From an uncultured Actinomycetota bacterium (GTDB taxonomy: Bacteria; Actinomycetota; Actinomycetes; JACCUZ01): DNA of 64,000 nucleotides. A program made the position numbers and the translations under genes. Within the stretch, counting starts at the first letter, position 1; every line of letters starts with the position of its first letter. Location: NCBI GenBank assembly GCA_963726615.1, contig CAVSCX010000003.1:292238-356237 (forward strand). Reading direction: 5' to 3'. This document shows positions 36,693 through 56,225 of this stretch, one piece after another. The notes under the pieces were generated by a model. It saw nothing but the letters and a program-made list of their open reading frames with translations. It searched no databases and had not been told where the DNA came from.

Positions 36693-37358
36693 GTGAACGG
36701 ACGGGTGCTGGTCGTCGAGGACGACCACGGCCTGCGCGACGTGGTGGCCCGCGGGCTGCGCGAGGCCGGCTTCGAGGTGACGACGGCGAGCGACGGGACG
36801 GGGGCCCTGCGCACTGCGGGGGCCGGGCAGTTCGACGTCGTGGTGCTGGACATCGGCCTGCCCGATGCGGACGGCCGCGACGTCTGTCAGGCGATGCGCG
36901 CTGCCGGGACCAGGGCACCGGTGGTGTTCCTCACCGCCAAGGACGGCGTCACCGACCGCCTGTCGGGCTTCGCCGCCGGCGGGGACGACTACCTGGCCAA
37001 GCCGTTCCACCTCGCGGAGCTCGTCGCCCGGCTGCGGGTCGCCGTCCGCCGCGGCGGGGAGCTCGCCGGGAGCACCGTCGGCGACCTGCAGGTGGACCCG
37101 GCCCGCCACGACCTGTCCGGACCGGCCGGGTCCGTGTCGCTGTCGCCCACGGAGTTCCGGCTGCTGGCCCGGCTGATGGCTCAGCCCGGCAGCGTCACCC
37201 GGCGGCACGAGCTCGTCGCAGCCGCCTGGGCCCATGGTTCCGTCGTCGCCGACAACACCCTGGACCAGTACGTCGCGAAGCTGCGCCGCAAGCTGGTCCA
37301 GGCGGGCAGCGAGCAGTCCATCGACACTGTGCGCGGCGTGGGCTACCGGCTCACGTGA
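36693..37358 (+). CDS. OmpR-family response regulator
   Basis: GTG start. VLVVEDDHGLRD...VVVLDIGLPDADG...LTAKDG. Winged helix TVRGVGYRL. Confidence 0.85.
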   Translation: MNGRVLVVEDDHGLRDVVARGLREAGFEVTTASDGTGALRTAGAGQFDVVVLDIGLPDADGRDVCQAMRAAGTRAPVVFLTAKDGVTDRLSGFAAGGDDYLAKPFHLAELVARLRVAVRRGGELAGSTVGDLQVDPARHDLSGPAGSVSLSPTEFRLLARLMAQPGSVTRRHELVAAAWAHGSVVADNTLDQYVAKLRRKLVQAGSEQSIDTVRGVGYRLT

Positions 37359-38683
37359 GGCGGCCACGCGCTCTGCGCAACCGGCTTGCCCTGGTCGCGC
37401 TGCTGAGCACCGGCGCCTGGGTGCTCGTGCTGACCGCCGTCTTCAACCTGCTGCTCACCGCACAGCTGAGCCGGCAGGCGGATGACGTGCTGCGCACCAG
37501 GGCAGCTGCTGTGGCCTCGACGGTGCTCGTGGCCGACGACGGGTCGGTGTCCCTGCGCGAGCCACCCAACGACGAGGCGCTGGACGCGGGGGTGTGGGTG
37601 TTCGCCGGGAGCACCGTGCTGGAGCAGCCGCGCGCCTCACCGACAGCCACCGCACAAGCCAGCCGGATGGCCTTGCGCGGCGGCCCGAGCTTCCGGGACG
37701 TGGCCGGCTCACCCACGGTCCGCCTGCACGTGCGCCCGTTGCGGCACGACGGGGCAAGGGTCGGGGCGATCGTCGTCGAGACCAGCCTGGAGCCGTACCG
37801 CCGGCCGTCGCGCGCGGCACTGGTGGGCTCGGTCCTGCTGGCGATGCTGGTGCTGGTCGGCGCCTTCGCAGCCACCCGGCAGGTGGTGCGCCGAGCCCTG
37901 GTGCCGGTGTCGGAGATGGCCGAGCAGGCGGCGCGGTGGAGCGCGCACGACGTCGGGCAGCGCTTCGGCGACGACCCGCGACCGGACGAGCTCCGCGATC
38001 TGGCAGGCAGCCTGGACGCCGTCCTCGACCGGATCGGCTCGGTGCTGCGGCACGAGCAGCAGCTGGCTGCCGAGATCTCGCACGAGCTGCGCACCCCGCT
38101 CGCCGTGATCTCCACCGAGACCGAGCTGCTGCTGTCGGGCGAGCGCGACGAGGACGAGCGACGGCGCGCCCATCGCGCGATCGCCGACACCGCGGACCGG
38201 ATGTCCACGCTGCTCGACGCCCTGCTCGCCCAGGCCGCCCAGGACGTCACCGAGGCGCCGGGGAGCTGCGTGGTCGCGCCGGTCGCCGAGCAGGTGCTGG
38301 CGTCGACCGGACCCTCCCCCACGACGTACGACGTCCAGGTGCCGGCCGACCTGGAGGTCGGCGTGACGGGCGACGTCCTCGCCCGCATCCTCATGGCGCT
38401 GGTGGGCAACGCGATGCGATACGCCGACGGGCGGGTCACGGTGGACGCTGTCCGGGCCGGGCACGAGGTGCGCATCCGCGTGCGCGACGACGGGCCGGGG
38501 GTGCCCGCCGCGTTCCGGGCCGACGTCTTCGAGCCGGGCCGCCGCGCCGAACCGGGTGACGGGCACCCCGGCGCCGGCCTCGGGCTGGCGCTGGCCCGAC
38601 GGCTGGCCCGCGCCGCCGGCGGGGACATCACCCTCGACGGCGACGCGGGGTCCGAGTTCGTCGTCGTCCTGCCACCCGCCTGA
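37355..38683 (+). CDS. Sensor histidine kinase
   Basis: GTG start overlapping RR stop (GTGA). Two TM. H-box AAEISHELRTPLAV. HATPase_c (LVGNAMRYA, GAGLGLALARR). Confidence 0.8.
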   Translation: MRRPRALRNRLALVALLSTGAWVLVLTAVFNLLLTAQLSRQADDVLRTRAAAVASTVLVADDGSVSLREPPNDEALDAGVWVFAGSTVLEQPRASPTATAQASRMALRGGPSFRDVAGSPTVRLHVRPLRHDGARVGAIVVETSLEPYRRPSRAALVGSVLLAMLVLVGAFAATRQVVRRALVPVSEMAEQAARWSAHDVGQRFGDDPRPDELRDLAGSLDAVLDRIGSVLRHEQQLAAEISHELRTPLAVISTETELLLSGERDEDERRRAHRAIADTADRMSTLLDALLAQAAQDVTEAPGSCVVAPVAEQVLASTGPSPTTYDVQVPADLEVGVTGDVLARILMALVGNAMRYADGRVTVDAVRAGHEVRIRVRDDGPGVPAAFRADVFEPGRRAEPGDGHPGAGLGLALARRLARAAGGDITLDGDAGSEFVVVLPPA

Positions 38684-38703
38684 GCGTGGGCAGGACAGCG
38701 ACG

Positions 38704-39501
38704 TCAGAGCGCGCGGACCTCCTCGACGTCGACCCTGGTCGCGGTCAGGTACGCGACCAGCACGAGGATCGCGCCGAGGAACGCGTAGCTCGTTCCCGTG
38801 GTGCCGAGGCCGATCCCGCCGTGCTTGTTCGACTGCGACATCAGGTCGCCGATCGAGGCACCAAGCGGGCGGGTGAGGATGTAGGCCAGCCAGAACGTCA
38901 GGACAGCGTTGGCCTTGAAGCCGTAGTGCGCGACGGCAACCAGGGCGATCGCCGCCGCGAACAGCAGCACCGACACGCCGTACCCGAGGGCGAACTGCTC
39001 GCCCACGAGGTCACCCGCGGCGGTGCCCAGGGCGAAGGTGAACAGGATCGCCAGCCAGTACCAGCTCTCGCGGCGCGACGTCACGATGCTGTGGATCGAC
39101 AGCGTGCCCTCGCTGCGGTACCAGAGGGCGAACGTGCCCGCGAGCAGCACGGCGAACACCGCCGTGCTCAGCGGCAACGGCACGCCGAAGCGGTCAGTGA
39201 GGTTGTCCGTGAGCAGCGTGCCGACCACGCTGATCACGACAACGGCCGCCCAGTAGACCGGTGCCACGTAGCGGCGGCTGCGGAACTGCCCGACCAGCAG
39301 GACCACGAGCAGCGCGGACGTCGCCACCGTCGTCCAGGTGAGGCCGAAGCCGAGCGTGTCGTTGAGGTAGTCGGCGGCCGTCTCGCCGACCGTCGTGGCC
39401 AGCACCTTGATCAGCCAGAAGTACAGCGTGACCTCGGGGACCTTGTTCAGCATCACCCGCACGGCGTCGCGGCGCGGGCTCGTCGTAGATGTCTCAGTCA
39501 T
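38704..39501 (-). CDS. Uncharacterised polytopic membrane protein (COG4705-like)
   Basis: Start at MTETSTTSP within the longer track ORF. ~7 TM. Confidence 0.55.
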   Translation of the reverse strand: MTETSTTSPRRDAVRVMLNKVPEVTLYFWLIKVLATTVGETAADYLNDTLGFGLTWTTVATSALLVVLLVGQFRSRRYVAPVYWAAVVVISVVGTLLTDNLTDRFGVPLPLSTAVFAVLLAGTFALWYRSEGTLSIHSIVTSRRESWYWLAILFTFALGTAAGDLVGEQFALGYGVSVLLFAAAIALVAVAHYGFKANAVLTFWLAYILTRPLGASIGDLMSQSNKHGGIGLGTTGTSYAFLGAILVLVAYLTATRVDVEEVRAL

Positions 39502-39579
39502 GGTGATCACGGTGACCGGCTGTGCCTGAACCCGACCTGACCAGTGGTTGGCGTCCCCGGGAGCGGGCAAGCGGGCCAC

Positions 39580-39960
39580 ATGGACGAGACATGGGACCTG
39601 TGGATCCGTGCGGTAGGGGCGACGGGGCTGTCGTTCGCGAGGGCGACTGTCGCCGCGGCGGCCGCCCGCGACCGGGTGCTGGTGCACGCCGCGCCGGAGC
39701 AGCTGGAGGTCGTGGTCCGGGACGGGAACGGCACCCTCGTCGCGGAGGGACGGGAGCTGGCGCGGGGCGAGCCCGGACCCATGACCTACCTGGTGCGGGA
39801 CGGGGACCAGATCCGGCTCGAGGACGGCTGGCCCACCGACGCCGACCTGGGTCGGCTGGTGATCCTGCCCGGCGGCGAGGCCGGTGTGCTCACCGCGTGG
39901 TGGCACGCGGAGGACCGGTCCGAGTGGCGCTGGTCGGTCGAGTTCGCCAACCACGTCTGA
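39580..39960 (+). CDS. Hypothetical protein (126 aa)
   Basis: Start at MDETWDLW. No recognised family. Divergent from the TauE gene. Confidence 0.45.
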   Translation: MDETWDLWIRAVGATGLSFARATVAAAAARDRVLVHAAPEQLEVVVRDGNGTLVAEGRELARGEPGPMTYLVRDGDQIRLEDGWPTDADLGRLVILPGGEAGVLTAWWHAEDRSEWRWSVEFANHV

Positions 39961-39988: not shown

Positions 39989-40768
39989 TCAGCTGCCGGC
40001 CCCCGGGTTGACCACCGCCTGCACGGCGACGAACGCGGCGACCAGCAGGACGAGCCCGGCGAACCCTCGACGCAGACGGTCCGCGGGCAGGCGGGTGGCC
40101 AGTCGCGCCGCGGCCAACGAGCCGGCGACCGCGGCACCGGTGAACACGGCGGCGAGGCCGTAGTCGACCTCCGCGCCGCCGACGTGCGCCGCGAACCCGG
40201 CGGCGGAGTTCACGGTCACCACGACCAGGGACGTGCCGACGGCGACCGCCATCGGCAGCCCCAGCAGCAGGACGAGTGCGGGGACCACGAGGAAGCCGCC
40301 CCCGACGCCGAACAGGCCGGTGAGCAGCCCGACGGCGACGCCCGACCCGATCGCCTTCGGCAGGCAGCCGCGCCAGTCCACCCGGCCGCCCGGCAGCGCG
40401 CAGTCCCCGCCGGCCTCCGGCTGCTCCCGGAGCATCCGGACAGCCGCCACGACCATCACCAGGGCGAAGCCGATGAGCACCATCCGGGGGTCCAGCGCCC
40501 GGTTCACCGCGGTCCCCGCGTAGGCGGCGGGGATACCAGCGGCACCCACGACCGCTGCGATGCGCCACTGGACCTGCCGCGCCCGGATCCGCGGGACGAC
40601 CGCAGCGGCGGCCGAGACCCCGACGACGAGCAACGACGTCGGCACCGCCGCCGACAGCGGCTGATCGGCGCCGTAGACCAGTGCCGGGACGGCGAGGATG
40701 CTGCCTCCGGCACCGAGCAGCCCGAGCAGGACCCCGATGGCCAGCCCGAGCGCGGCCGCGACAGCCAT
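39989..40768 (-). CDS. TauE/SafE (DUF81) sulfite/anion exporter family permease
   Basis: 259 aa. Two internal repeats each with GxGGG ([12 protein letters not shown] and [11 protein letters not shown]). ATGA overlap with upstream gene at 40768. Confidence 0.8.
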
Positions 40769-42153
40769 CAGCGGGCTGCGGCCGTCCTCGGCGCCTCGAG
40801 CCCGGCCTCCGCCGCCGCCGCGTAGTCCTCGTTCACGTGCACGACAGTCCGCCGGTCGACGTCGAGCATCGACGCGGCGATCGCGGCCCGGTACCCGGAG
40901 CCGCAGTACACCCACACCTCGCCGTCCGGCACCTCGGCCAACCGGTCCGGCAGCTCGTGGATGGGGATGTGCATCGACGCTTCGACATGTCCCGTGGCGC
41001 GCTCGTCGTGCCGTCGCGCGTCGAGCACGTGCACCTCGGCACTGTCGTCCTCCCCGAGACGGGCGGCGAGCCCGGCGAAGTCGGAGACGCGGTAGGTGCG
41101 CAGCGGACTTCCGGCGGCCATGGCCTCGACGTCGCCTACCGCGGCGCCCGCCAGCTCGTCGATACCGATGCGCACGAGCTCGCGCCGCGCATCGGCGACC
41201 TGCTCGGACGTCTCGCCGATGAGAGTGAGCGGGGCGCCCCACGGCACCAGCCATCCCACGTAGGTGACGAAGTTCGTACCCAGCTCGAAGTTCCGGCTGC
41301 CCGTCAGGTGACCGGCCGCGAACGCTGTCCGTTCGCGCAGGTCCACGACCCACTCTCCGGCCTCGATCCGTGAGCGCAGCTCGGCCGGGTCGACCGGCCG
41401 GGGGGCGCCGAGGTCGACCGGCTCCGGGCCGCGGTTGTTGGCCGGCCCCATGTGCGCGTAGTAGGCGGGGTAGGCGTCCAGCCCGGCGAGCAGCGTCTCG
41501 ACGTAGGTCTGCTCGTCCTGGGTGAGGGCCGGGTTCGTGGCACGCTGCTCCGCCACGGTGGAGTCGTCGCCTGAGGTCGGGGTGGCCGAGCAGAAGCTGC
41601 CGAACCCGTGGGTGGGCAGCACCTGGGCGTCGGACGGCAGGTCCGCAGCCAGCCGGCGCACCGACCGGTACTGCGCGCGGGTCAGGTCCACGGTGTGCTC
41701 CGGGCCGACGAGGTCCGTCCGGCCGGTGGAGCCGAACAGCATGGACCCGCCGGTCAGGACTGCCTGGACCGGGCCGTCCAGCACCGCGACGGCGTAGGCG
41801 ACGTGGTGGTGGGTGTGGCCCGGGGTGTGCAGCACCGACACCCGTAGGTCCCCCACCTCGAACGTGTCACCGTCGGCCACCGGCGTGTGCGGGAACTGTG
41901 CACCCATGTCGTGCGGCACGACGTAGGAAGCCCCGGCGACAGTCGCCAGCTCGAGGCCGCCGGTGACGTAGTCGTTGTGCCCGTGGGTCTCCGCGACGGC
42001 TGCGATGCGGACTCCCAGCGTCTGCGCCAGGTCCAGCACTCGGTCGATGTCGCGCTGCGGGTCGACGACAAGGGCGACGGTGCCGTCGGTGAGCAGGTAG
42101 CTGCGGTCACCGAGCGACGGTGTCTCGATCACGTGGTGGGTGAGTCCGGACAT
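40768..42153 (-). CDS. Persulfide dioxygenase (ETHE1-like MBL fold) fused to C-terminal rhodanese domain (CstB-like)
   Basis: Start at MSGLTHHV. MBL metal motif AETHGHNDYVTG plus HTPGHT. C-terminal rhodanese with active-site CGSGYRA. Confidence 0.8.
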   Translation of the reverse strand: MSGLTHHVIETPSLGDRSYLLTDGTVALVVDPQRDIDRVLDLAQTLGVRIAAVAETHGHNDYVTGGLELATVAGASYVVPHDMGAQFPHTPVADGDTFEVGDLRVSVLHTPGHTHHHVAYAVAVLDGPVQAVLTGGSMLFGSTGRTDLVGPEHTVDLTRAQYRSVRRLAADLPSDAQVLPTHGFGSFCSATPTSGDDSTVAEQRATNPALTQDEQTYVETLLAGLDAYPAYYAHMGPANNRGPEPVDLGAPRPVDPAELRSRIEAGEWVVDLRERTAFAAGHLTGSRNFELGTNFVTYVGWLVPWGAPLTLIGETSEQVADARRELVRIGIDELAGAAVGDVEAMAAGSPLRTYRVSDFAGLAARLGEDDSAEVHVLDARRHDERATGHVEASMHIPIHELPDRLAEVPDGEVWVYCGSGYRAAIAASMLDVDRRTVVHVNEDYAAAAEAGLEAPRTAAAR

Positions 42154-42169: not shown

Positions 42170-42517
42170 TCAGGCCGGCTCCGAGCCGGCGACAACCGGG
42201 TTGCCCGCCTTCATCCAGCCGCCGGTGCCCCCGGCGACCGAACGCGCGTCCGCACCGGCCTGGCCGAGCAGCCCGGCGCCGGCCTTGCTCCGGTTCCCCG
42301 AGGCGCAGACGACGAACACCGGGGCTCCGGCTGCCTCCCGTACCAGGTCGTCGGTGTGACGTCCGAGCTGGTCGAGCGGGATGTTGCGCGCGCCAGGGAC
42401 GTGGCCGCCGACGTACTCGTCCGGCTCGCGAACGTCCACGGTCAGCGCGCCCGCTGCATGGGCGGTGGCGAAGTCGGCGAGCTCGGTCTCACGGACGGTG
42501 TTGCCTTGGCTGGACAT
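42170..42517 (-). CDS. Single-domain rhodanese-like sulfurtransferase
   Basis: 115 aa. GAGGAG RBS. Active-site loop CASGNRS. Confidence 0.75.
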   Translation of the reverse strand: MSSQGNTVRETELADFATAHAAGALTVDVREPDEYVGGHVPGARNIPLDQLGRHTDDLVREAAGAPVFVVCASGNRSKAGAGLLGQAGADARSVAGGTGGWMKAGNPVVAGSEPA

Positions 42518-42529
42518 CAACACTCCTCT

Positions 42530-42545
42530 ATACGGGTGGGGGTAT
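42530..42545. promoter_or_regulatory. Operator-like box 1: ATACGGGTGGGGGTAT (ATAC-N8-GTAT), in the 5'UTR of the rhodanese operon
   Basis: Exact reverse complement of box 2. Sits immediately upstream of the rhodanese RBS. Confidence 0.5.
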
Positions 42546-42655
42546 CGTTCGAACCTATCAAGGCGCCGGGACCGGCCCTCATTCCGGTCTGCCCCGGTCA
42601 ACCTCCGACATACCCCGGCGGGGGCGTCTCGCACTCCTGCTTGCGGTATGGCAAC

Positions 42656-42671
42656 ATACCCCCACCCGTAT
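42656..42671. promoter_or_regulatory. Operator-like box 2: ATACCCCCACCCGTAT, 24 nt upstream of the MMPL GTG start
   Basis: Exact reverse complement of box 1, 110 nt away. Same ATAC-N8-GTAT architecture. Confidence 0.5.
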
Positions 42672-42694
42672 CCGAGAAACCGCGAGGACCCTCC

Positions 42695-44869
42695 GTGACG
42701 ACTGCCCCGACCGCCCGCGACACGAGCGTCAGCGGCCCCAAGAACACCAGGGACGACGGTAATGCCCGGCTGGGCCCGCTCGGCCGCCTCGGTGTGTGGA
42801 CCGCCACCCGTGCCCGGACTGTCTTCGTCGTGTGGCTGCTGATCGTCGTCTCCCTGGGGGCCTTCGCGCCGAAGGTGGAGCACGCGCTCGCCGGCGCCGG
42901 CTGGGAGGCGTCGGGGTCGGAGTCGGTCGCCGTGCGGGACATCGCGCACCGCGAGTTCGGCGGGATGTCGAGCGCCGCTCTCCAGGTCGTCGTGCACACC
43001 GACTCGGGCACCGTGACCACCGGTCCCGGCCGGGTCGCGGTCGACCGGGCCGTGGCACTGCTGCGCGCCGACGATCGGGTCTCCACCGTCCAAGCGCCGC
43101 GGCCCGGCACGTCGCTGTCCCCCGACGGACGCACTGCACTGATCCGCGGCGGCGCAGCCAGTGCCAACACCAACGAGATGGTCCGCGCGGCGGACGACCT
43201 CAAGGGACCGGTGCGCGACCTGAGCGGTGACGACGTGACTGTCGCGCTCACGGGGTCGTCCGCGCTGTGGAGCGACTTCAACGCCGCCAACCTCGACGCG
43301 ATGATGAAGAGCGAGCTCATCAGCTGGCCGGTCACACTGGTCATCCTCGTGCTCGCGTTCGGGTCCCTGGTGGCCGCCGGCCTGCCGCTGATGCTGACGA
43401 TCACCGGGCTGGTCGCCGCAGCCGGATCCCTCTACCTCGGCACCCTGCTCGGTGACATCAGCATCTGGGCGATGAACTTCGCGCTGATGTTCGCGCTCGC
43501 GCTGGGCATCGACTACGCACTGTTCGTGGTCGTCCGGTACCGAGCCGCGCGGTTCGGAGACCACCAGAACACCCGGTCAGCCGTTGGCGAGACCATGGAC
43601 ACGGCCGGCAAGGCGGTCCTCTTCTCCGGCGTCACCGTCCTGGTCTCCCTGTCGGCAGTGATGCTGGTGCCGTCGCCGGCCTTCCGCTCGATGGCCCTCG
43701 GCATCATGCTCGCCGTCGTCTTCGTCCTGGCCGCGACGCTGACCCTGCTCCCGGCCGTCCTCGGGAAGCTCGGTCACCGGGTGGACGCCCTCGCACTGCC
43801 CTGGGTGCACGCCGGTGAGCACCGGTCGCTCCGCTTCGAGCGGTGGGCCCAGCGGTTGTGGCGTCGGCCGGTCGGCTACGGACTGCTCGCCCTCGTGGCC
43901 CTCGCTGTCCTCGCAGCCCCGGTGCTGGGACTACGGACCGGGATGCCCTCGATCAAGGTCGTTCCGGAGACCGACTCCAGCCGGGTCGGCTACGCCGCCG
44001 TCCAGGACGCGTTCGGCCCGGGCGCACCAGGCACGCTGCAGGTCGTCGTCCCCCAGGACCGGGCCGGCCGGGCCGCGGCCGTGCTCGCCGACGATCCGGG
44101 AGTGGTCATGGTCATGCCGCCCGCTGCCGGCATTGGGAAGAAGGTCCTGCTGGCCGCCGTACCCGACGACGGCCCGTCCACCCGCGCCCTGGGCACGACG
44201 ATCGACCGGCTCCGTGCCGACCTGCCGTCGGAGGCCCTCGTCGGAGGCCCCTCGGCCGAGAACCACGACCTCGAGCGGCTGCTGGCCGACAAGACACCAC
44301 TGGTCATCGGCGTCGTGCTGGCGCTCGGCTTCCTGCTGCTGCTGGTCGCCCTGCAGGCGCCGCTGGTGGCGGCTCTGGGCACCCTGACGAACCTGCTCGC
44401 CACCGGTGCCGCCTTCGGCGTGGCGAAGCTGATCTTCCAGGACGGGCACGGATCGGGCCTGCTCGGGTTCGAGCCGCAGGGCTTCCTCGACGCCTGGGCT
44501 CCGGTGTTCTTCTTCGCCATGATCTTCGCCATCGGCATGGACTACACCGTCTTCCTGCTGGCGTCCGCGAAGGAGCACTGGGAGCGGTCGAACGACGCAC
44601 GCGAGGCGATGGTGGGCGGGCTGGCGCACTCCGGCCGGGTCATCTTCGCCGCTGCCGGCGTGATGGTCGCTGTCTTCTTCACCTTCGCCCTGTCCGGCCC
44701 GCTCCCCCCGAAGGAGATGGGTGTCGTCCTCGGCGTCGCCGTGCTCCTCGACGCAGCGCTGGTCCGTCTCCTGCTGCTGCCGGTGCTCCTGCGACTCAGC
44801 GGCCGAGCCGCGTGGGCTTCGCCCTCCTGGTTGCGCCGGCTGCTGCCGCGGGTGCGGTTCAGCCACTGA
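42695..44869 (+). CDS. MMPL-family (RND superfamily) membrane transporter
   Basis: 724 aa from GTG preceded by GAGGA. Two 6-TM bundles each followed by an extracytoplasmic domain. Confidence 0.8.
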   Translation: MTTAPTARDTSVSGPKNTRDDGNARLGPLGRLGVWTATRARTVFVVWLLIVVSLGAFAPKVEHALAGAGWEASGSESVAVRDIAHREFGGMSSAALQVVVHTDSGTVTTGPGRVAVDRAVALLRADDRVSTVQAPRPGTSLSPDGRTALIRGGAASANTNEMVRAADDLKGPVRDLSGDDVTVALTGSSALWSDFNAANLDAMMKSELISWPVTLVILVLAFGSLVAAGLPLMLTITGLVAAAGSLYLGTLLGDISIWAMNFALMFALALGIDYALFVVVRYRAARFGDHQNTRSAVGETMDTAGKAVLFSGVTVLVSLSAVMLVPSPAFRSMALGIMLAVVFVLAATLTLLPAVLGKLGHRVDALALPWVHAGEHRSLRFERWAQRLWRRPVGYGLLALVALAVLAAPVLGLRTGMPSIKVVPETDSSRVGYAAVQDAFGPGAPGTLQVVVPQDRAGRAAAVLADDPGVVMVMPPAAGIGKKVLLAAVPDDGPSTRALGTTIDRLRADLPSEALVGGPSAENHDLERLLADKTPLVIGVVLALGFLLLLVALQAPLVAALGTLTNLLATGAAFGVAKLIFQDGHGSGLLGFEPQGFLDAWAPVFFFAMIFAIGMDYTVFLLASAKEHWERSNDAREAMVGGLAHSGRVIFAAAGVMVAVFFTFALSGPLPPKEMGVVLGVAVLLDAALVRLLLLPVLLRLSGRAAWASPSWLRRLLPRVRFSH

Positions 44870-44876
44870 AAGGCGC

Positions 44877-44892
44877 ATACCCTGGCGTGTAT
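44877..44892. promoter_or_regulatory. Operator-like box 3: ATACCCTGGCGTGTAT, 19 nt upstream of the CstR-like gene
   Basis: Same ATAC-N8-GTAT frame as boxes 1 and 2, with a less G/C-run core. Confidence 0.4.
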
Positions 44893-44910: not shown

Positions 44911-45171
44911 GTGCAGGTGGACCTCGAGACCGTCGGACCGGTCGTGAACCGGCTCAAGCGCGCCCAGGGGCAGCTGGCCGGGGTGCTGCGGATGCTGGAG
45001 GAGGAGCGGGACTGCGCGGACGTCGTGACCCAGCTCGCCGCGGTGTCCCGTGCGCTGGACAAGGCAGGGTTCGCCCTCATCGCGGCCGGCCTCGAGCAAT
45101 GTCTCCGTGCCGGCGACGACGGTGCGCTGGACCGCGAGAAGCTCGAGAAGGTCTTCATGTCGCTGGCCTGA
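44911..45171 (+). CDS. CsoR/RcnR-family (DUF156) repressor, CstR-like (two Cys, no His)
   Basis: 86 aa from GTG. VNRLKRAQGQLAGVLRMLEEERDCADVVTQLAAVSRALDKAGFALIAAGLEQC. Cys residues 29 apart, as in S. aureus CstR. No His at the Cu-ligand position. Confidence 0.7.
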   Translation: MQVDLETVGPVVNRLKRAQGQLAGVLRMLEEERDCADVVTQLAAVSRALDKAGFALIAAGLEQCLRAGDDGALDREKLEKVFMSLA

Positions 45172-54006: not shown

Positions 54007-56225
54007 ACCGCTTCATCCGTCGCCTCGGCGACCTCAGCGCCCGCCGCCCCTGGACCATCATCGGAACCTGGGCCGTCGTGGCCGCGCTCGTGGCCGTGCT
54101 CTCCGGCGCACTCGGCGGCGCGTTCGTCGACGACTTCAGCGCACCCGGCAGCGACAGCGCCAACGCCATGGACCTGCTCGACGAGCGGTTCCCCGCCGTG
54201 GCCGGCGGCACCGCCGTCGCCGTGTTCGCCGCCCCCGAAGGTCAGCAGGCAACGGCTTTCCGGCCCGCCGTCGACGCCGCACTGTCCCGGGTCGCGAGGA
54301 TCGACCACGTCGCCGCCGTCGGCGACCCGTTCGCCGCCGGGCACGTCTCCCCCGACGGTCGCGTCGCCTACGCGGACATCGCCCTGGACGTGCCCTCGAC
54401 CCAGTTCGGACGCGACACCGCCGCCACCCTCGTGCACGCCCTCAAGACAGCCCAGGTGAACGGGCTGCGGACCGAGTTCGGCGGCGACGCAGCGTTCCTC
54501 AACGCTGAGGAGGAGAAGTCCGGCTCCGAGGTCTTCGGCATCGTGGCCGCCCTCGTCGTGCTGCTCGTCGCGTTCGGGACCGTCGTGGCCGCACTCGTGC
54601 CCATCGTCCTCGCGCTGGTGGCGGTCGGTGTCGGGCTCGCCGGCATCGTGCTGCTGGCCGGCGGCATCACGGTCTCCACCGCCGCACCGACCATCGGGGC
54701 CATGGTGGGACTGGGCGTCGGCATCGACTACGCGCTGCTGATCGTGTCCCGCTACCGCGAGAACCGTGCCGCCGGGCACGCCAACGGCCCCGCGCTCTCG
54801 GTCGCCATGAGCTCGTCCGGCACCGCCGTGTTCTTCGCCGGTGGCACCGTCGTGCTCGCGATGGGTGCCCTCGTGCTCACCGGCGTCGGCTTCCTCGCCT
54901 CCATCGGCATCAGCACCTCCATCGTCGTCCTGTTCGCGGTCGCCACCGCAGTCACCCTGCTGCCCGCGCTGCTGTCCGTCCTCGGTGACCGCATCGACGC
55001 TGTGCGGGTCGTCGGCCGTCGCCGCGACAGGACCGCCAAGGCGGCGAAGCCGGTGGAGGCGACCGTCTGGTGGCGGCTCGCGCACCGCATCTCCGCCCGG
55101 CCCGTCCCGTACCTCGTCGCCGGTGCTCTGGTCATGCTGACGCTGGCCGTCCCGGCCCTGTCGCTGCAGACCGGCTTCCCCGACGCGAGCGACAACCCGT
55201 CCGGCCACACCGAGCGCAAGGCGTACGAGCTGCTCGCCGACGGCTTCGGTCCCGGCTACAACGCCCCGCTCGTCGTGGTCGCCGACCTGCGCGCCGCCCA
55301 CCTCGACCCGATCGACGTCTCGTCGCTGGCGGCCGACATCGGCGCCGTCCCCGGAGTCGCCCAGGTCGGCGAGCCGCGCACCAACCGGGCCGGCGACACC
55401 GTCGTGCTGCCCACGCTGCCGACCACCGATCCCTCGGACCCGGCGACCGTGCGCACCCTCGAGCGGGTCCGTGCCGTCACCCCGCCCGGGGTCTTCGTGA
55501 CCGGCCCGACCGCGCTGACCCTCGACCTGGACAGGCAGCTGTCCGAGACTCTGCCGCTGTTCATCGGCGCCATCCTCGCGACCTCGATCCTGCTGCTGAT
55601 GATCGTGTTCCGCTCGATCGCCGTGCCGCTCAAGGCCGCCGTGATGAACATGCTGTCCATCGGTGCCGCCTACGGGGTCGTGGTCGCCATCTTCCAGTGG
55701 GGCTGGCTTGCCGGCGCGTTCAACATCCACGACACGTACCGGATCGCCTCGCCCCTGCCGGTCATCTTCTTCGCGGTGCTGTTCGGCCTCTCGATGGACT
55801 ACGAGGTGTTCCTCGTCTCCCGGATCCGCGAGTCCTACGAGGCCACCCGGGACAGCACGGAGGCGGTCGCCCGCGGCCTGGCGTCCACCGGACGGGTCGT
55901 GACGTCCGGCGCGCTGATCATGGTGCTGGTGTTCCTGTCGTTCGTCACGAACCCGTCCCCGTTCGTCAAGATGATCGGCATCGGCCTGGCCACCGCGATA
56001 GCGCTGGACGCCACGGTCGTCCGCATGGTGCTGGTGCCGGCCACGATGGCTCTGATGGGCCGGACCAACTGGTGGCTGCCCGGGTGGCTGGACCGAGTCC
56101 TGCCGCACCTGAGCCTCGAAGGTCCCTCAGCCCAGCCGCCCGCCGCTCCGGTGCCCGTGCCCGCGCAGGGCGACAACCGCGCCCCGGAACCGGACGCCAC
56201 GCCGGTCCCGAGCGCCTCTCGCTGA
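54003..56225 (+). CDS. MMPL-family (RND superfamily) membrane transporter
   Basis: 740 aa from MNRFIRRLGDLSARRPW. Duplicated 6-TM plus periplasmic domain architecture. Confidence 0.8.
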   Translation: MNRFIRRLGDLSARRPWTIIGTWAVVAALVAVLSGALGGAFVDDFSAPGSDSANAMDLLDERFPAVAGGTAVAVFAAPEGQQATAFRPAVDAALSRVARIDHVAAVGDPFAAGHVSPDGRVAYADIALDVPSTQFGRDTAATLVHALKTAQVNGLRTEFGGDAAFLNAEEEKSGSEVFGIVAALVVLLVAFGTVVAALVPIVLALVAVGVGLAGIVLLAGGITVSTAAPTIGAMVGLGVGIDYALLIVSRYRENRAAGHANGPALSVAMSSSGTAVFFAGGTVVLAMGALVLTGVGFLASIGISTSIVVLFAVATAVTLLPALLSVLGDRIDAVRVVGRRRDRTAKAAKPVEATVWWRLAHRISARPVPYLVAGALVMLTLAVPALSLQTGFPDASDNPSGHTERKAYELLADGFGPGYNAPLVVVADLRAAHLDPIDVSSLAADIGAVPGVAQVGEPRTNRAGDTVVLPTLPTTDPSDPATVRTLERVRAVTPPGVFVTGPTALTLDLDRQLSETLPLFIGAILATSILLLMIVFRSIAVPLKAAVMNMLSIGAAYGVVVAIFQWGWLAGAFNIHDTYRIASPLPVIFFAVLFGLSMDYEVFLVSRIRESYEATRDSTEAVARGLASTGRVVTSGALIMVLVFLSFVTNPSPFVKMIGIGLATAIALDATVVRMVLVPATMALMGRTNWWLPGWLDRVLPHLSLEGPSAQPPAAPVPVPAQGDNRAPEPDATPVPSASR

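Follow-up and report, generated by a model that had tools for sequence, protein, structure and literature searches.

The window analysed here (64,000 nucleotides of contig CAVSCX010000003.1 from an uncultured actinobacterial genome) contains a divergent intergenic region, 42518-42694, in which two 16-bp boxes of the form ATAC-N8-GTAT are placed in opposite orientations. One of them precedes a minus-strand gene set for a rhodanese (rhod), a putative persulfide dioxygenase (pdo) and a sulfite exporter (tauE), and the other precedes a plus-strand pair of genes for an MMPL transporter (mmpl) and a CsoR-family regulator (cstR). These boxes, together with a third one just before the regulator gene, are very probably the operators of a CstR-type persulfide-sensing repressor, the product of the gene at 44911-45171, as judged from their sequence, statistics and conservation, the gene content of the locus and the family signature of the regulator. 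The locus would be an actinomycete CstR/ScCsoR operator-repressor switch of the kind already known from Streptomyces, and the current understanding of CstR-type regulation is not overturned by it. Its new aspects are minor, namely a conserved non-palindromic form of the operator, an extra, likely autoregulatory box together with a half-box, and the presence of the MMPL transporter in the predicted regulon.

Box 1 occupies 42530-42545 and reads ATACGGGTGGGGGTAT on the plus strand, which is ATACCCCCACCCGTAT in the orientation of the minus-strand rhodanese gene; box 2, at 42656-42671 on the plus strand, is ATACCCCCACCCGTAT. The first-pass annotation had described the two as exact reverse complements 110 nt apart, and this is the case, with 100% complementarity over 16 bp. 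It had also placed box 1 against the ribosome-binding site of the rhodanese gene and box 2 shortly before the MMPL start, and both placements agree with the sequence: 12 nt carrying a GGAG Shine-Dalgarno sequence separate box 1 from the ATG (42517, minus strand), and box 2 ends 23 nt from the GTG (42695). The statement that the boxes lie in the only AT-richer stretch of the region stands in part; the GC content of the intergenic region, 0.633, is the minimum of the neighbourhood, but dips inside the MMPL gene are nearly as low (0.65-0.66). The description of the boxes as pseudo-palindromes has to be given up for their interior, because none of the four inner pairs (0/4) is complementary in either box and the dyad is confined to the ATAC/GTAT ends. 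Inside boxes 1 and 2 there is a C tract with a single interruption (CCCCACCC), whereas in the S. coelicolor sites a C tract is followed by a G tract.

The motif ATAC-N8-GTAT is found three times in the window, compared with 0.04 matches expected analytically at 73.9% GC, and it did not appear in any of 100 dinucleotide-preserving shuffles of the window. The third motif match, box 3, was overlooked in the first reading. It is located at 44877-44892 on the plus strand (ATACCCTGGCGTGTAT), within the 41-nt spacer between mmpl and cstR and 18 nt before the GTG of cstR, and its ATACCCT...GTAT is kept in seven genomes. Box 3 is likely an autoregulatory site, which would act at an internal (weak) promoter or else as a roadblock to transcription through mmpl-cstR. 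A similarly short distance, 29-55 nt, separates box and cstR in many other loci, whose cstR genes must be transcribed from promoters of their own. The 7-mer ATACCCC also has three copies in the window, all within 42539-42662 inside the 177-bp intergenic region; two of them are parts of boxes 1 and 2, and the third is at 42610-42616. Measured from start to start, box 2 follows box 1 at 126 bp (12.0 helical turns), and since this spacing varies between 123 and 126 bp in the orthologues, the helical phasing is only approximate and DNA looping is not claimed. With the relaxed motif TAC-N8-GTA, eight matches are obtained in the window against 0.6 expected, five of which are outside the locus (12984, 47608, 48971, 52519 and 59462). 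These five were rejected as operators, as they have no outer A/T and at least three of them are inside open reading frames with high GC content at third codon positions; the excess of the relaxed motif over the shuffles may be an effect of codon usage.

The same motif accompanies homologues of the regulator across many Actinomycetota. A scan with the regulator alignment, taking one genome per species, gave 80 loci (882 kb in total; L numbers below designate these loci and metagenome contigs), among them loci of uncultured lineages and of Arthrobacter, Nocardioides, Pseudonocardia, Kribbella, Streptomyces and Kitasatospora. Over this total length there are 117 matches to ATAC-N8-GTAT, where 1.5-1.7 are expected, and the motif is present in 71 of the 80 loci. 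A box lies at most 150 nt upstream of the regulator gene in 39 loci and at most 1 kb upstream in 63, and nearly all boxes adjoin homologues of the rhodanese, dioxygenase, TauE, MMPL or regulator genes. Thus the 16-bp operator known from S. coelicolor appears to be used throughout the Actinomycetota, about one third of its sites being non-palindromic.

Conservation within the intergenic region is concentrated on the boxes. When the intergenic regions of the window and of the four genomes with its exact gene order (L001-L004) are aligned, 16 of the 16 columns of box 1 and 15 of the 16 columns of box 2 are invariant, as against 26 of 129 in the remaining intergenic sequence outside a third element, ATACCCCG, all of whose eight columns are invariant as well. 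Apart from these elements, uninterrupted invariance over at least five columns is confined to the MMPL Shine-Dalgarno sequence (GAGGAC) and the start codon. The three boxes, which lie 12, 23 and 18 nt before the start codons of rhod, mmpl and cstR, respectively, are conserved in the orthologues, and as TAC/GTA dyads around G/C tracts in the promoter regions of the presumed target genes and of the regulator gene they agree with CstR-type operators. In L001 and L004, boxes 1 and 2 differ from each other by one base, which indicates that their exact identity is not itself selected. The element ATACCCCG (42610-42617) is the conserved 5′ half of a degenerate or half operator at 42610-42625 (plus strand), likewise overlooked in the first reading, in whose 3′ half only 2 of 8 columns are invariant. 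This half-box is 46 bp upstream of box 2, and the predicted −35 position for mmpl comes immediately after it. Its sequence in L002/L003 is ATACCCCGCTG[G/A]GCAT, with TTGACG behind it.

Comparison of the five genomes (the window and L001-L004) suggests that boxes 1 and 2 would each sit on a core promoter of its own, the former on that of the minus-strand rhod-pdo-tauE operon and the latter on that of the plus-strand mmpl-cstR operon. In the rhodanese orientation, TGnnAnnnT is found upstream of box 1 in all five genomes at a distance of 6-8 nt; in the window this candidate extended −10 element is TGATAGGTT (42552-42560, minus strand), 6 nt upstream of the box. At this distance box 1 would span approximately +1 to +16, the predicted transcription start coinciding roughly with its first base, and the rhodanese leader would be about 28 nt long. 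On the other side, all five genomes share a CAnnAT whose last two bases open box 2. For the window it is CAACAT with a preceding TG, giving a putative extended −10 element TGGCAACAT at 42649-42657 (plus strand) that reaches 2 nt into box 2. TTGACG stands 18 nt upstream of CAnnAT in L002-L004, and its place is taken by the TG extension in the window and L001. L005 and L006 are arranged differently, yet their boxes also overlap likely core promoter elements. The proposal of the first-pass annotation that one repressor controls both divergent units is supported by the presence of the motif in 71/80 loci and by its conservation, with the amendment that control would be exerted through two operators on their own promoters and not through a shared site.

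The regulator encoded at 44911-45171 (plus strand) has 86 residues and belongs to PF02583 (CsoR/RcnR, DUF156; E = 1.2e-22, 80.5 bits against a cut-off of 22.8), a match that is also precomputed for an identical public protein. In an alignment of 26 homologues, Arg14 and Arg17 of the RLxR motif, Gln41 and Cys35 are invariant and Cys64 is nearly so. Gly60, also invariant among the 26, takes the position of the Cu(I)-ligating His of copper sensors. In the 'W-X-Y-Z' notation the protein has an x-C-x-C motif, with two conserved Cys and no His at the Y position, and x-C-x-C is the motif by which CstR is defined (PMC8643695). The best match among solved structures is CstR of S. pneumoniae (7MQ1/7MQ2/7MQ3; 7e-14), a demonstrated persulfide sensor (PMC8643695), with Cys35 and Cys64 aligned to its Cys30 and Cys59. 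The scores against the NCBIfam models of the other family branches are 44.1 bits for RicR (cut-off 175), 28.1 for RcnR (cut-off 138) and 28.5 for FrmR (cut-off 133). The genes around the regulator, encoding a sulfurtransferase, a putative persulfide dioxygenase and a sulfite exporter, make up a CstR-type context, and most of the 80 loci have the same one.

We propose that the switch would work as follows. Reduced repressor tetramers would bind each ATAC-N8-GTAT box. Occupancy of box 1 would cover the predicted start of the rhodanese/persulfide dioxygenase/TauE operon, box 2, aided by the upstream half-box, would cover the −10 and start region of the mmpl-cstR operon, and box 3 just before cstR would let the repressor control its own gene. 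A rise in sulfane sulfur (persulfide or polysulfide) would lead to modification or cross-linking of Cys35 and Cys64, the modified repressor would leave the DNA, and both divergent units would be transcribed. The enzymes would then oxidise persulfide to sulfite for export, and freshly made reduced repressor would shut the switch again. For an uncultured actinobacterial genome, this amounts to a confident and testable regulatory annotation, in which a set of predicted persulfide-stress genes is assigned together with the exact DNA sites.

The closest precedent is ScCsoR (SCO0620) of S. coelicolor, which represses pdo-tauE, rhod and its own gene (Lu et al. 2020, PMC7533328). ScCsoR binds 16-bp ATACC-N6-GGTAT sites in electrophoretic mobility shift assays; the pdo promoter has two of them, at −48 and −9, and a further one precedes csoR/rhod. 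Polysulfide releases it, for which Cys37 and Cys66 are required, and similar circuits exist in hundreds of Streptomyces genomes (PMC7533328). Both this regulator and that of the present locus are actinomycete CsoR-family proteins with two Cys, and pdo (a metallo-beta-lactamase-rhodanese fusion), tauE, rhod and the regulator gene itself adjoin the sites, which in both cases are 16 bp long with ATAC...GTAT ends and an 8-bp interior, the binding being predicted from sequence for the window. The two sites in the pdo promoter of S. coelicolor are about 40 bp apart, and the half-box and box 2 here are 46 bp apart. On the side of the differences, the regulator is only about 61% identical to Streptomyces/Kitasatospora homologues (L074, L076 and L079), rhod, pdo and tauE form a single operon here that is divergent from mmpl-cstR, and an MMPL transporter is part of a unit predicted to be controlled, unlike in the four-gene circuit of ScCsoR. 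The first-pass annotation had compared the boxes with operators of the CsoR/CstR family at large, which holds, and had named the B. subtilis copZA operator as its example; the nearest precedent is instead the actinomycete 16-bp ScCsoR/CstR site and not that 17-bp one.

In the divergent cst promoter of S. aureus there are also two operators. The CstR proteins of Staphylococcus aureus, Enterococcus faecalis and Streptococcus pneumoniae/mitis share the x-C-x-C motif with the regulator described here, both Cys of which align with those of the S. pneumoniae protein, and these firmicute repressors control sulfurtransferase and persulfide-detoxification genes (PMC8643695). In contrast, the firmicute operator is a 17-bp palindrome with N9, e.g. 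ATACCCTTATGGGGTAT in S. mitis, as against the 8-bp interior here, and the firmicute regulon differs, consisting of cstA/cstB/sqr or coaP/rhdA/rhdB. In a published sequence similarity network, firmicute CstR proteins form cluster 3 and actinomycete candidates clusters 4 and 10, an assignment made for the proteins of that paper; S. coelicolor CsoR(CstR) is among the actinomycete candidates in a separate x-C-x-C cluster (PMC8643695). Comparison with the Cu(I)-sensing CsoR of S. lividans (PMC3902906) reveals a common fold, the same RLxR and Gln residues for DNA contact (Arg14, Arg17 and Gln41), and, in its type-2 operators, similar GTA dyads on either side of G/C tracts that tend towards the A-form. 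However, the copper site of that protein is x-C-H-C, whereas Gly60 is found here, and its consensus ATATACCCCTNAGGGGTATAT is a TAC-X9-GTA that targets copZA (PMC3902906), in contrast to X8 and sulfur genes here. The boxes also resemble the type-1 operator of E. coli RcnR (TACT-G6-N-AGTA, PMC3902906) in having a single, nearly unbroken G/C tract between short AT-rich inverted repeats (TAC-GGGTGGGG-GTA). Unlike RcnR, the regulator has no H-C-H-H motif and scores 28 bits against the cut-off of 138, and, unlike with type-1 sites, boxes of this type and ordinary palindromic ones occur together at such loci in other genomes. In the terms of PMC3902906, the boxes have the appearance of type-1 sites and the dimensions of type 2.

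Several observations weigh against the assignment of the boxes to the adjacent repressor. Boxes 1 and 2 are ATACC-N6-CGTAT and box 3 is ATACC-N6-TGTAT, so that each agrees with the ScCsoR consensus at 9 of 10 positions, the consensus itself being derived from few sites of one species; and the box interior is non-palindromic, unlike that of the ScCsoR sites. A scan of 42400-42800 for sigma-70 consensus promoters and terminators found nothing, and the overlap of operators with promoters and the promoter positions given above are consequently read from the comparison of genomes only. A −10-like element was looked for upstream of box 3 and none was seen. Finally, a second CsoR-family protein that uses the boxes could be encoded beyond the 64-kb window. 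Were this so, the boxes would be the operators of another paralogue, such as a Cu(I)-sensing CsoR/RicR, a Ni/Co sensor or a formaldehyde sensor, and would serve a metal response. We regard this as improbable. TAC/GTA dyads around G/C tracts are indeed common to the operators of copper-sensing CsoR proteins (PMC3902906), and a likeness to type-1 RcnR sites (TACT-G6-N-AGTA) can be seen in the G tract with its one interruption (GGGTGGGGG). Yet the adjacent regulator has Gly60 in place of the His ligand and stays far below the cut-offs of RicR, FrmR and RcnR, an H-C-H-H or P-C-H-x motif being expected of the latter two; the dyad has the form TAC-X8-GTA, where the Streptomyces CsoR consensus has X9, and the ATAC/GTAT ends with an 8-bp interior depart from RcnR/FrmR sites. 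No cop genes (copZ/copA) and no rcnA-like gene are among the called neighbours, there is no second CsoR-family gene within the window, and the motif tracks the regulator homologues and the sulfur genes in 71/80 loci.

Could the perfect 16-bp complementarity instead reflect a nucleic-acid structure, be it a long-range RNA stem, a leader element masking the ribosome-binding site or a DNA cruciform? Box 1 would lie inside the rhodanese leader if the predicted start is correct, but the predicted starts would also place the two boxes on different, divergent transcripts. The leader folds are no more stable than those of shuffled sequences (z −1.5 to +2.1), no pairing with the Shine-Dalgarno sequence is conserved, and no Rfam match was obtained. 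Moreover, the one-base difference between the boxes of L001 and L004 is uncompensated, and box 3, like the majority of boxes elsewhere, lacks an inverted partner, all of which makes this explanation very unlikely, even more so than that of another paralogue. A chance repeat is ruled out by the shuffles, and terminal inverted repeats of a miniature mobile element, which would account for perfect 16-bp inverted termini around a 110-bp core, are hardly credible: there is no target-site duplication (flanks ...CCTCT / CCGAG...), the core diverges between genomes while the boxes are fixed at the same orthologous position, and no further copy is present in the window. A metagenome scan with the exact 16-mer, which informs on context and not on frequency, returned at least 120 contigs. 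Among the matches listed, recognisable sulfur-cluster genes are present in 31 of 120 contigs, and such clusters are the recognisable contexts; many of the low-GC matches are probably due to chance, and they resemble random hits rather than copies of an element. Operators of the CstR-type repressor remain by far the most probable identity of the boxes.

Two forms of the box can be distinguished. Among 120 boxes (those of the window and of the 80 loci), 72 are palindromic, 37 have a C tract and 11 are mixed. The C-tract form is used throughout the clade of the window. C-tract and palindromic boxes share loci, often as neighbours (in Arthrobacter loci, and in metagenome contigs before TauE); one repressor presumably accepts both. 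Pairs of a C-tract and a palindromic box, 54-57 bp apart and about 100 nt upstream of a TauE gene, were observed in metagenome contigs (6958/7012 in L086, 1723/1779 in L095, 363/418 in L140, 210/267 in L172 and 8130/8186 in L200); they represent a fixed two-site architecture in another lineage.

Why, then, are boxes 1 and 2 exact reverse complements? In the clade of the window (the window and L001-L006) the C-rich strand of a box is always the coding strand of the following gene. A single non-palindromic operator variant precedes both divergent genes and faces each of them the same way, from which the exact complementarity follows. As a general rule for all loci this orientation was rejected, since a crude test of flank coding in the high-GC loci gave 20 cases in agreement and 22 in disagreement, and L092 is a counter-example. 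There an exact box, ATACCCCTACCCGTAT, at 2691-2706 lies 22 nt upstream of a minus-strand open reading frame (2410-2670) for which the G-rich strand is coding. This frame, which encodes 86 residues, is about 300 nt downstream of a pdo gene and has a sub-threshold match to DUF6907 only. The same flank-strand signature is probably present in L090, L100, L102, L105, L132, L146 and L179, high-GC metagenome contigs judged by the same crude test. The open reading frame of L092 may be an uncharacterised member of the regulon.

The MMPL transporter is repeatedly part of the gene set predicted to be controlled, a point that we did not find in the literature; no link of MmpL to CstR or to persulfide was present among the top-ranked literature matches. 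Orthologues with 64-84% identity adjoin cstR in 17 of the 80 loci (L001-L006, L012, L017, L022, L027, L043, L045, L047, L052, L062, L070 and L071), located either directly after a box or at the end of a box-controlled rhod-pdo-tauE-mmpl operon. A more far-reaching interpretation, which we put forward only tentatively and consider rather doubtful, is that C-tract boxes are a distinct operator class between types 1 and 2 and that MMPL has an unrecognised role in export. A box of such a class, ATACCCC[C/T]ACCCGTAT, may combine one consensus half-site with only the GTAT anchor of the other. If this were true, CstR would bind C-tract and palindromic boxes with different stoichiometry or affinity (e.g. 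the former as one tetramer or more weakly), a difference that would result in a graded order of derepression, and in this clade an MMPL/RND transporter under control of the same switch would be an export component of actinobacterial sulfane-sulfur homeostasis.

The gene neighbourhood given in the first-pass annotation, with rhodanese, metallo-beta-lactamase/rhodanese persulfide dioxygenase-like and TauE genes on the minus strand and MMPL and PF02583 genes on the plus strand, was borne out by Pfam and by independent public gene calls on the source contig (ENA ERZ25039476 contig_2619, 1.9 Mb, from a metagenome assembly), which are identical in genes and coordinates. The first gene of the minus-strand operon, 42170-42517, was identified by Pfam and gene call as that of a single-domain rhodanese of 115 residues. 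It is followed by a CstB-like fusion of a metallo-beta-lactamase and two rhodanese domains (40768-42153, minus strand, 461 residues), a putative persulfide dioxygenase-sulfurtransferase that matches 3TP9 (5e-63), 3R2U (4e-41) and the persulfide dioxygenase ETHE1 (4CHL, 4.5e-14) in the PDB. In Pfam the fusion has two Rhodanese matches, and Lactamase_B reaches 20.0 bits, under the cut-off of 22.7, so that an annotation by Pfam only would say merely 'rhodanese'; this is also what the precomputed public annotation says, despite the strong structure matches. The last gene of the operon encodes a TauE/SafE sulfite exporter of 259 residues (39989-40768, minus strand; Pfam TauE 9e-49). The three genes are separated by a gap of 16 nt and then overlap by 1 nt (tauE with the pdo stop codon), which makes them one operon. 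The MMPL/RND-type transporter of 724 residues (42695-44869, plus strand; Pfam MMPL 6.6e-70) is the first plus-strand gene, behind box 2. A second MMPL gene in the window (54021-56120, plus strand), whose product is a paralogue with 33% identity over about 700 residues, has no ATAC-N8-GTAT box near it and serves as an internal negative control.

The operon is flanked by genes for a DUF7712 protein (39544-39960, plus strand), a DUF347 membrane protein (38704-39516, minus strand) and a two-component system (36693-38683, plus strand), and no box precedes any of these (36693-39960). DUF7712 is beside tauE in L001 and L002 as well. L001 (CAWDBV010000002.1), a near-identical relative whose proteins at the locus agree in about 98% of their residues, carries the label 'uncultured Solirubrobacterales bacterium'; those of other close relatives are Actinomycetes, Actinomycetota or Sporichthyaceae, which makes the taxonomic labels of these bins inconsistent.

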